Source: a virus
Lineage: Duplodnaviria; Caudoviricetes
Virus record (IMG/VR): IMGVR_UViG_2870282538_000006
Span: 29,068-93,067 of that record
DNA length: 64,000 bases
Direction: 5' to 3' (one strand)
The notes below the pieces were generated by a model. The model had not been told where the DNA came from. It was given only the letters and a program-made list of their open reading frames with translations, and searched no databases. The translations under genes were made by a program, and so were the position numbers. Below, piece by piece: positions 27,637-27,765 of the stretch. How positions within the stretch are numbered: position 1 is the stretch's first letter; every line of letters starts with the position of its first letter.

Positions 27637-27765
27637 AAAAAAGGCACCATTTGGTGCCCCCTACCCAAAATCAAAGGAGTGGATTGCTAATCAGACAACC
27701 CGGACTGCTACAGAATACGGGTTCTATAGCAGATATGCGTCTGATCATGGTCCATCTGTGATGCA
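27637..27765 (-). ncRNA. candidate 3'-UTR sRNA antisense to the RNA polymerase RBS
   Basis: Structured domain 27689-27746, 18-nt complement of the RNAP leader at 27662-27679, terminator GGCACC-AAAU-GGUGCC-U6. Confidence 0.65.

Follow-up and report, generated by a model that had tools for sequence, protein, structure and literature searches.

A 3'-untranslated region of a Bacillus phage-plasmid operon as a candidate trans-acting antisense RNA against a QDE-1-like RNA polymerase gene

The subject of this report is a putative antisense RNA, carried in an operon mRNA's 3'-untranslated region (3'UTR), and the RNA polymerase gene to whose translation start region it is complementary. Both lie in a stretch of 64,000 nucleotides (nt), positions 29,068 to 93,067 of the IMG/VR record IMGVR_UViG_2870282538_000006, which is called the window throughout and in whose coordinates positions are given unless a contig is named. 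The window is part of this 93-kb provirus record and is 99-100% identical to plasmids of 200-212 kb from Bacillus licheniformis and B. paralicheniformis, and 77% identical to a plasmid of B. halotolerans. Its right half contains genes for a ParM-like partition protein, a terminase, a portal protein and a head protease-like protein, and its left half those for the polymerase, helicases and other DNA-handling proteins. Because partition, terminase, portal and head protease-like genes are found together with polymerase and helicase genes, the replicon is a phage-plasmid. In one paper the group figures just as a small community, 'pp_Blicheniformis' (PMC7969092). The features of the locus are listed below (nt; amino acids, aa; open reading frame, ORF), each with the basis of its assignment.

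27662..27679, − strand: antisense stretch CUCCUUUGAUUUUGGGUA of 18 nt, here called the seed (exact complement of 39334-39317)
39317..39334, − strand: target site UACCCAAAAUCAAAGGAG in the polymerase leader (complement of the seed)
27688..27747, − strand: two-tier hairpin 5' of the seed, with outer and inner stems of 11 pairs each, G-U pairs included (folds)
27626..27661, − strand: intrinsic terminator, stem 27661-27640 followed by a U-run (terminator scan and fold)
27766..27852, − strand: ORF of 28 aa (MKRTWRDTVGMIAAIVVTVFSICAIFAL) whose 3'UTR holds the seed (ORF list)
35528..39307, − strand: P0001, predicted two-barrel (QDE-1/YonO-superfamily) RNA polymerase of 1259 aa with a DFDGD motif (Pfam, fold, motif)
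28954-28442, − strand: RNase H gene (Pfam/PHROGs)
28425-28087, − strand: gene for a LysM-like membrane protein (Pfam/PHROGs)
28090-27872, − strand: ORF of 72 aa (upstream of the 28-aa ORF)

The 18-mer CTCCTTTGATTTTGGGTA, which the − strand carries at 27679-27662, has its reverse complement at 39317-39334, where the − strand reads TACCCAAAATCAAAGGAG from 39334 to 39317; the exact 18-nt complementarity to the Shine-Dalgarno (SD) region of the polymerase gene reported in the first-pass annotation of this DNA is thereby confirmed in sequence and coordinates. The polymerase SD sequence, AAAGGAGG, occupies 39323-39316 and is followed, 9 nt downstream, by the ATG codon at 39307-39305; seven of its eight bases (AAAGGAG) lie inside the target site. 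Seed and target are 11.6 kb apart, both on the − strand, and are separated by genes of the opposite strand and an insertion sequence. They are the sole two matches to the 18-mer in the window when up to 3 mismatches are allowed, and the same holds for the 93-kb record and the whole B. halotolerans and B. paralicheniformis plasmids, with the exception of one additional match with 3 mismatches in B. halotolerans.

The seed is located between the stop codon of the 28-aa ORF (27766) and the intrinsic terminator (27661-27640) of an mRNA, the order on the − strand being the two-tier hairpin (27747-27688), a mostly unpaired linker with the 18-mer, and the terminator. The 28-aa ORF is the last of a leftward row in which it is preceded by the RNase H gene, the LysM-like gene and the 72-aa ORF (27872..28954). 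The fold of the 3'UTR has a z-score of −3.7, and the seed is predicted to be mostly single-stranded, with an opening energy of 4.5-7.1 kcal/mol; that of the target is 2.4-5.3 kcal/mol, and the net energy of their interaction is −15 to −21 kcal/mol. Predicted folds and terminator scan thus bear out the earlier description of a single-stranded segment between a structured domain and an intrinsic terminator. The structured domain itself was recovered as the two-tier hairpin with stems as listed, three of the pairs in the window copy being G-U, and the AACCCG/CGGGUU pseudoknot that had been proposed with it is not supported: the window contains both words, but B. halotolerans has AACGCG and an unchanged CGGGTT.

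Within the window, the pair of seed and target is the sole long-range (>500 nt) inverted exact match of at least 18 nt, and the start regions of the 124 other ORFs have longest same-strand complements of 9-15 nt each. In a duplex scan, the polymerase start region finds its strongest same-strand partner in the seed site, with −36.3 kcal/mol against a background with a mean of −11.8 kcal/mol and a standard deviation of 3.8, the next non-self match having −29.6 kcal/mol. An 18-nt long-range inverted match was also found in 12% of 150 windows simulated with a second-order Markov model (mean 0.17 per window), and the same 18-mer recurs as a leader of start regions in 13 viral contigs, which form three unrelated phage groups. 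Leaders similar to the 18-mer arise repeatedly, and therefore the match needed support from outside. By itself it is unusual and not decisive; the comparative data decide. A blastn search of the phage collection with both sites gave no match, and none of the viral contigs contained an exact copy of a 25-mer taken from the hairpin.

The first set of comparative data comes from the licheniformis group, termed lineage A. The B. paralicheniformis duplex retains 18 of 18 pairs, since a C-to-U change in the target opposite a seed G yields a G-U pair. In B. halotolerans, 17 of 18 pairs are present: C-to-U and A-to-G changes in the seed lead to two G-U pairs, and a C-to-A change of the terminal seed base breaks one pair. 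The net interaction energy after opening of both sites ranges from −13.6 to −20.7 kcal/mol in this lineage. Between the window and B. halotolerans, four-fold sites diverge by 28.5% (142/498) within the polymerase gene and by 32-50% within four neighbours of the seed, and the identity is 91% in the hairpin, 83% (15/18) in the seed and about 95% in the polymerase leader. Because the identity of the seed and target sites exceeds that expected from four-fold-site divergence, both are, on this measure, constrained. The hairpin pairing is kept in 93 of 93 cells of the alignment of three licheniformis-group copies, and all seven stem pairs that vary between the window and B. halotolerans still pair; the B. 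halotolerans terminator differs by one G-C to A-U double change and three one-sided changes that keep the pair. Two other roles considered for the seed segment were set aside, namely coding on the − strand (a 32-aa ORF at 27769-27671 is shortened to 6 codons in B. halotolerans) and an SD sequence on the + strand (AAAGGAG is AAAGAAT in B. halotolerans); no promoter-like site on the + strand faces the 3'UTR.

The second set, lineage B, was obtained by a search with the neighbouring helicase, which led to seven relatives in viral contigs with 55-80% helicase identity. A polymerase gene was located in five of the seven (G001-G005), its product being 25-30% identical to P0001. Two of these genomes carry a seed-like stretch of 25 nt that differs from the seed of the window, UCAUAGUAAUGAUUUCUUCUUUGUG in G004 (L053:8251-8275) and UUUUUUAUAGUAAUGAUUUCUUCUU in G002 (L050:7314-7338), and in each case it is complementary to the SD sequence, the spacer and the AUG codon of the genome's own polymerase gene. 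The duplex of G004 consists of 23 Watson-Crick pairs, 1 G-U pair and 1 mismatch, and that of G002 of 22 Watson-Crick pairs, 2 G-U pairs and 1 mismatch. In duplex scans of the polymerase start the stretch reaches −38.8 kcal/mol in G004 (mean −10.7, standard deviation 3.4) and −31.8 kcal/mol in G002 (mean −10.0, standard deviation 3.3), with net interaction energies of −24.2 and −19.5 kcal/mol, respectively. The gene order equals that of the window: a LysM gene is followed by an ORF of 36 or 38 aa with a polar head and a hydrophobic tail, a two-tier hairpin, the single-stranded stretch and a terminator. The seeds of lineages A and B share only a CU(C/U)CUUUG core, and the duplex has in effect slid along the start region between the lineages. 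The polymerases of G004 and G002 are 69% identical; their start regions are identical at 37 of 37 positions within a leader identical at 159 of 244, and their seeds at 19 of 19, and the small ORF and the terminator differ. In the four genomes compared, the seed pairs with the polymerase start region at −26.7 to −34.2 kcal/mol versus −11.4 to −19.2 kcal/mol with the start of its own small ORF. The five duplexes of both lineages include seven distinct non-Watson-Crick positions, five of which are G-U pairs on − strand RNAs, a bias to one strand that pairing of RNA predicts and DNA repeats do not. As a separate observation, the first polymerase codons after the ATG, AAA AAT CAA ACT GC, are nucleotide-identical in lineages A and B (window 39307-39285; L062 and L063 around 10001), even though overall the proteins share only about 30% identity.

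The complementarity does not extend to all relatives. In G001, G003 and G005 the syntenic stretch reaches only −15 to −20 kcal/mol, which is not above background; in a B. thuringiensis plasmid of 260 kb with a polymerase 34% identical to P0001, the best value is −23.3 kcal/mol and the longest complement to the polymerase start is 12 nt, and in a Paenibacillus urinalis plasmid it is 10 nt, neither plasmid rising above background. With no match in five tested relatives, the device is not universal in the family. A scan match of G003 at −30.9 kcal/mol was set aside as it lies inside a 67-aa ORF. In the comparison of related replicons suggested in the first-pass annotation, complementarity is thus kept in three lineage A copies and two lineage B genomes and missing from the five relatives.

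The hairpin has a wider distribution than the seed. A covariance model of the 3'UTR (R1) finds a homologous hairpin at the syntenic spot of the B. thuringiensis plasmid, where no small ORF, no seed and no terminator were found. Six of its pairs are changed on both sides, a number reached by 1 of 500 shuffles in a test that comprised only three sequences and an alignment fitted to the covariance model. As judged by this comparison, the hairpin is older than the seed, and since it occurs without the seed it has a role of its own. In L049-L055, model R1 found nothing (best score 13 bits, E 0.49), and its matches in L021 and L020 are ordinary terminators.

That the target gene encodes an RNA polymerase, as the first reading of the sequence had it, agrees with the predicted structure of P0001. 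The model of residues 60-1259 (predicted local distance difference test score 83.7, predicted template modelling score 0.74) has QDE-1 (7y7t_B) as its best Foldseek match, with an E-value of 1.6e-17 and template modelling scores of 0.42/0.53, followed by the plant RDR2; 20 chains of the PDB match at E <= 0.001, and among those listed all are QDE-1 or plant RDR2. The sequence GGADFDGD contains the catalytic motif DxDGD, and D746, D748, G749 and D750 do not vary among the 10 homologues of alignment A1 or the 15 of alignment A8. The Pfam family RdRP (PF05183) is matched with 24.5 bits, just over the cut-off of 23.8, and only 2 of the 10 members of alignment A1 match it at E <= 0.01. Because of the QDE-1-like fold and the invariant DFDGD, P0001 is by structural modelling a two-barrel RNA polymerase of the superfamily of QDE-1 and YonO. 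A sequence search of the PDB with alignment A1 gave nothing below E 0.27, tblastn of P0001 against the phage collection gave no match at E 1e-5, and P0001 as a single query had no match in viral or genome contigs; searches of genome, viral and metagenome contigs with alignment A1 found only relatives with at most 33% identity. P0003-P0008 are polymerase homologues that are 55-69% identical. YonO is described as a single-chain two-barrel polymerase of the temperate Bacillus phage SPbeta that transcribes late genes (PMC5467207). Both YonO and P0001 are single-chain two-barrel polymerases of Bacillus elements, whereas the nearest solved fold of P0001 is that of QDE-1. By analogy with YonO, we infer that P0001 drives the late genes of its element.

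Since each lineage keeps its complementarity with different sequences at the same syntenic place, the proposed trans pairing of a − strand RNA from the 3'UTR with the start region of the polymerase is supported, and the pairing looks selected rather than accidental. We estimate at roughly 0.8 the probability that a 3'UTR-borne antisense RNA acts in trans and occludes the start site of the polymerase. Running leftward on the phage-plasmid of about 205 kb, the transcript of the RNase H/LysM/72-aa/28-aa operon would end in the structured 3'UTR, the seed of which would pair in trans with the start region of the polymerase mRNA encoded 11.6 kb away. The duplex would cover the SD sequence, and in lineage B also the start codon, and would keep ribosomes off the polymerase mRNA and so repress translation; with a length of 18-25 bp it might also attract cleavage by RNase III. 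Synthesis of the polymerase would be held down while the operon is transcribed, which may amount to a lysogeny lock or to a feedback loop, and the 3'UTR could act within the full mRNA or after processing. Because no sigma-A-like promoter that could drive a separate small RNA was found, the RNA may be active as the end portion of the operon transcript.

The missing promoter counts against trans-acting repression of the polymerase, as do several other points. The frequency of 18-nt matches in simulated windows, the relatives in which no match was found and the hairpin without a seed in B. thuringiensis belong here. In B. halotolerans, a duplex scan that tolerates loops gives a runner-up at −29.0 kcal/mol next to −29.7 for the seed. 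The informative substitutions in lineage A number only four, and lineage B has only two members, no further ones having been found in the viral contigs or the plasmid collection. The read data consist of contigs only and give no discrete RNA, no 5' end and no strand, and the contigs of run X1 span the whole 13 kb at a depth of 2-6, so that DNA may be present. Contigs of X2, a library guessed to be RNA, cover 27649-28371 and end inside the terminator, and those of the RNA library X3 cover 27697-27973; this coverage is weak evidence in favour, as the contigs give neither strand nor ends and carry-over of DNA is possible. In X2 and X5 most of the 13 kb is devoid of contigs, which is uninformative on expression level or on whether the polymerase gene is silent. 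At 28371, X2 shows a loose end that looks like a cDNA adapter, and nothing is drawn from the resemblance.

The alternative that survives best, improbable as we judge it, is a fold-back in cis, in which CUCCUUU of the 3'UTR pairs with the SD sequence of the 28-aa ORF on the same mRNA and silences the small membrane peptide, akin to a type I toxin mRNA or the icaR 3'UTR, the extension to the polymerase leader being incidental. Both the minimum free energy (MFE) and the centroid folds of mRNAs of 254 nt and 261 nt pair the SD sequence with the seed region in the window and in B. halotolerans; in the latter, ten contiguous pairs are formed and the C1-to-A change of the seed meets an A-to-U change in the SD sequence. 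The opening energy of the SD sequence also rises in the presence of the 3' end, from 1.3 to 3.6 and from 2.2 to 5.7 kcal/mol. With the mRNA extended by a further 150 nt on its upstream side, however, the expected pairs drop to 3.5 and 0.13, and in all four genomes the duplex with the own start is the weaker one by the energies given above. Fold-back in cis also leaves unexplained the 11 extra complementary bases and the 25-nt match of lineage B over the polymerase spacer and AUG, and the 28-aa ORF closes an operon rather than standing alone as a toxin gene. Cis pairing may coexist with pairing in trans.

It is very improbable that the 3'UTR is simply a conserved structured element for stability, termination or processing whose complementarity to the polymerase leader has no function. 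Such a coincidence would fit the 12% of simulated windows, the conservation of the hairpin without the seed in B. thuringiensis and the recurrence of the 18-mer as a leader in unrelated phage contigs, but it does not account for a second lineage with a different 25-nt complement at the same place, for seed and target as islands of identity between genomes whose polymerases are 69% identical, or for the limit of 15 nt reached by the other 124 ORF start regions. Least probable of all is a feature at the DNA level, in which the sites, inverted repeats by definition in a window rich in repeated operator-like palindromes, would serve a recombinase (as ends of an invertible 11.6-kb segment) or a DNA-binding protein, as the relative orientation is the same in all five plasmids and both lineage B genomes, no opposite-strand joint of 27.67 kb and 39.32 kb is listed in the read runs (which are of low depth), neither site is dyad-symmetric, the G-U pairs at five of seven non-Watson-Crick positions fall on one strand only, and the sites always lie in a 3'UTR by a terminator and on a start region.

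If trans-acting repression of the polymerase is accepted, a wider role can tentatively be considered: this family of Bacillus phage-plasmids of about 200 kb might gate its whole late programme in this way, with lineage-private pairs of seed and target as a lysogeny lock and as a c4-like determinant of immunity specificity among related elements, and the 3'UTR might in addition couple translation of the small membrane peptide encoded upstream to the presence of polymerase mRNA, a possibility to which we give less than even odds.

With respect to the surroundings of the 3'UTR, the synteny of the RNase H, LysM and 72-aa row is kept in all relatives examined. The 28-aa ORF has the SD sequence AAAGGAAGG at 27870-27862, and its product has a polar N-terminus and is hydrophobic in the C-terminal two-thirds. 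In B. halotolerans it is of equal length and 71% identical, and small ORFs of similar layout occur at the same place in G004, G002 and G001. The ORF is unannotated in the RefSeq plasmid records; the peptide has no relatives beyond the five plasmids and no Pfam, PHROGs or NCBIfam family. A scan of the window with Rfam 15 at gathering thresholds found only a Pistol ribozyme, two tRNAs and a skipping-rope RNA, none of them at the 3'UTR, and an E-value scan of 27450-27950 gave only sub-threshold matches, the best being SSRC38 on the terminator (30.4 bits; gathering score 80). The Pistol ribozyme (18741-18804, − strand) scores 75.4 bits relative to a gathering score of 34.5, and the skipping-rope RNA (25759-25843, + strand), which lies between a gene for an SNF2-type helicase and a 327-aa gene on the strand opposite to both, 67.4 bits relative to 36.7. 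The tRNAs, tRNA-Asn (GTT) and tRNA-Met (CAT), adjoin each other at 44457-44608 (+ strand) upstream of the ParM-like gene.

Several repeated motifs occur in the window. The divergent intergenic region at 28955-29390, which separates the RNase H operon from a 236-aa gene without a family, is dense in TCAC(C/T)GGTG-like repeats. Palindromes of the type TAATGCATTA/TAATGCATCA are found at 6533, 6595, 17086, 44197, 53253 and 60805, and the palindrome TGATGCATCA at 27759, 29227 and 32423, the copy at 27759 overlapping the stop codon of the 28-aa ORF; the family has 9 matches in total versus 0.71 expected and probably represents operator or promoter elements. The motif ATATTTCGTATTT is present in three exact copies, at 27559-27571, 27609-27621 and 61071-61083 (−), and also directly after the homologous hairpin in the B. 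thuringiensis plasmid (L039, about 28955-28970); it may be a conserved promoter-like element ahead of an 84-aa gene. A GC-rich hairpin, GCCCCGGATGGGGC as read on the + strand, is repeated at about 13408, 27505 and 34765, one of the copies falling within the leader 5' of the 84-aa gene.

The window and the B. thuringiensis plasmid (L039 19425-19460) have in common a conserved block of non-coding DNA, TTTTTCTATACATTT..GG....CCGTTTC, which in the window lies at 39450-39390 (−), upstream of the polymerase gene. A terminator-like hairpin with a T-run (39419-39396), formed in the MFE fold and uncalled by the terminator scan, follows this block, and control of the polymerase by read-through may also take place there. 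In the interval between seed and target, an insertion sequence with a transposase (PHROG 157, E 3.9e-87) occupies 33032-34316 and reaches very high depth in three runs; since a contig of X1 bridges it, connecting 33027 with 34317, an insertion-free copy exists. In runs X1 and X3, the segment 31101-32277 is present as a variant with about 64 differences at a depth 10-30 times that of the rest of the plasmid, and must therefore also belong to a second replicon of greater abundance.

A short duplex and a nearby small hydrophobic ORF, here of 28 aa, are reminiscent of type I toxin-antitoxin systems, in which antitoxin RNAs such as IstR-1 (target tisB) and OrzO (target zorO) are trans-encoded and have perfect matches of 18-21 nt to the mRNA leader. 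The present seed, however, complements the polymerase leader and not its own small-ORF mRNA (−11.4 to −19.2 kcal/mol), and small ORF and RNA are on one transcript. As expected of a 3'UTR-embedded trans-acting RNA, it lies between stop codon and terminator with an accessible seed, and its complementarity is kept in relatives. The sar RNA of phage P22 is transcribed from the strand opposite its target and hence is cis-encoded, whereas the RNA described here comes from a different locus and shares the strand of its target. As an antisense RNA, sar pairs with the ant mRNA at its start region and thereby blocks initiation (PMC12197685). The 3'UTR of Staphylococcus aureus icaR pairs with the 5'UTR/start region within the molecule (PMC3868564), and the 5'UTR of Listeria hly pairs with the 3'UTR of prsA2, i.e. 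between two mRNAs (PMC8722363). These cases have in common with ours a 3'UTR stretch of Firmicutes that pairs with a start region or 5'UTR, but they concern chromosomal genes, icaR acts in cis, and neither a phage polymerase nor lineage-specific co-evolving seeds figure in the text available. Our literature search turned up neither an RNA directed against a polymerase encoded by a phage nor an account of how synthesis of a YonO/QDE-1-type polymerase is controlled, and the terms 'RNA polymerase' and 'Bacillus' do not occur in a 2025 review of phage small RNAs.

Among known systems, the one that comes closest is the c4 antisense RNA (immI) of the plasmid-prophages P1 and P7, which binds around the ribosome-binding site of the ant operon and blocks its translation (PMC12197685, PMC8201110). 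There a plasmid-prophage employs a structured antisense RNA against the ribosome-binding site of a key lytic regulator, with specificity from short complementary stretches that differ between related phages; the same would hold here, where 18-25 nt are complementary to the SD sequence, or to SD sequence, spacer and AUG. The target of c4 is an antirepressor gene, icd/ant, farther downstream in the transcript to which c4 itself belongs; here, in contrast, the RNA forms the 3'UTR of a different operon at a distance of 11.6 kb, the target is an upstream gene for a QDE-1-like polymerase, and the host is a Gram-positive bacterium. Little is understood of single-chain two-barrel polymerases of the YonO/QDE-1 type, and the locus, if read correctly, would place a simple RNA switch on the master enzyme of little-studied large Bacillus phage-plasmids. 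The concerted change of seed and target between lineages would offer a handle on the evolution of antisense specificity, and the RNA would be a Gram-positive, 3'UTR-borne counterpart of the P1 c4 immunity RNA.

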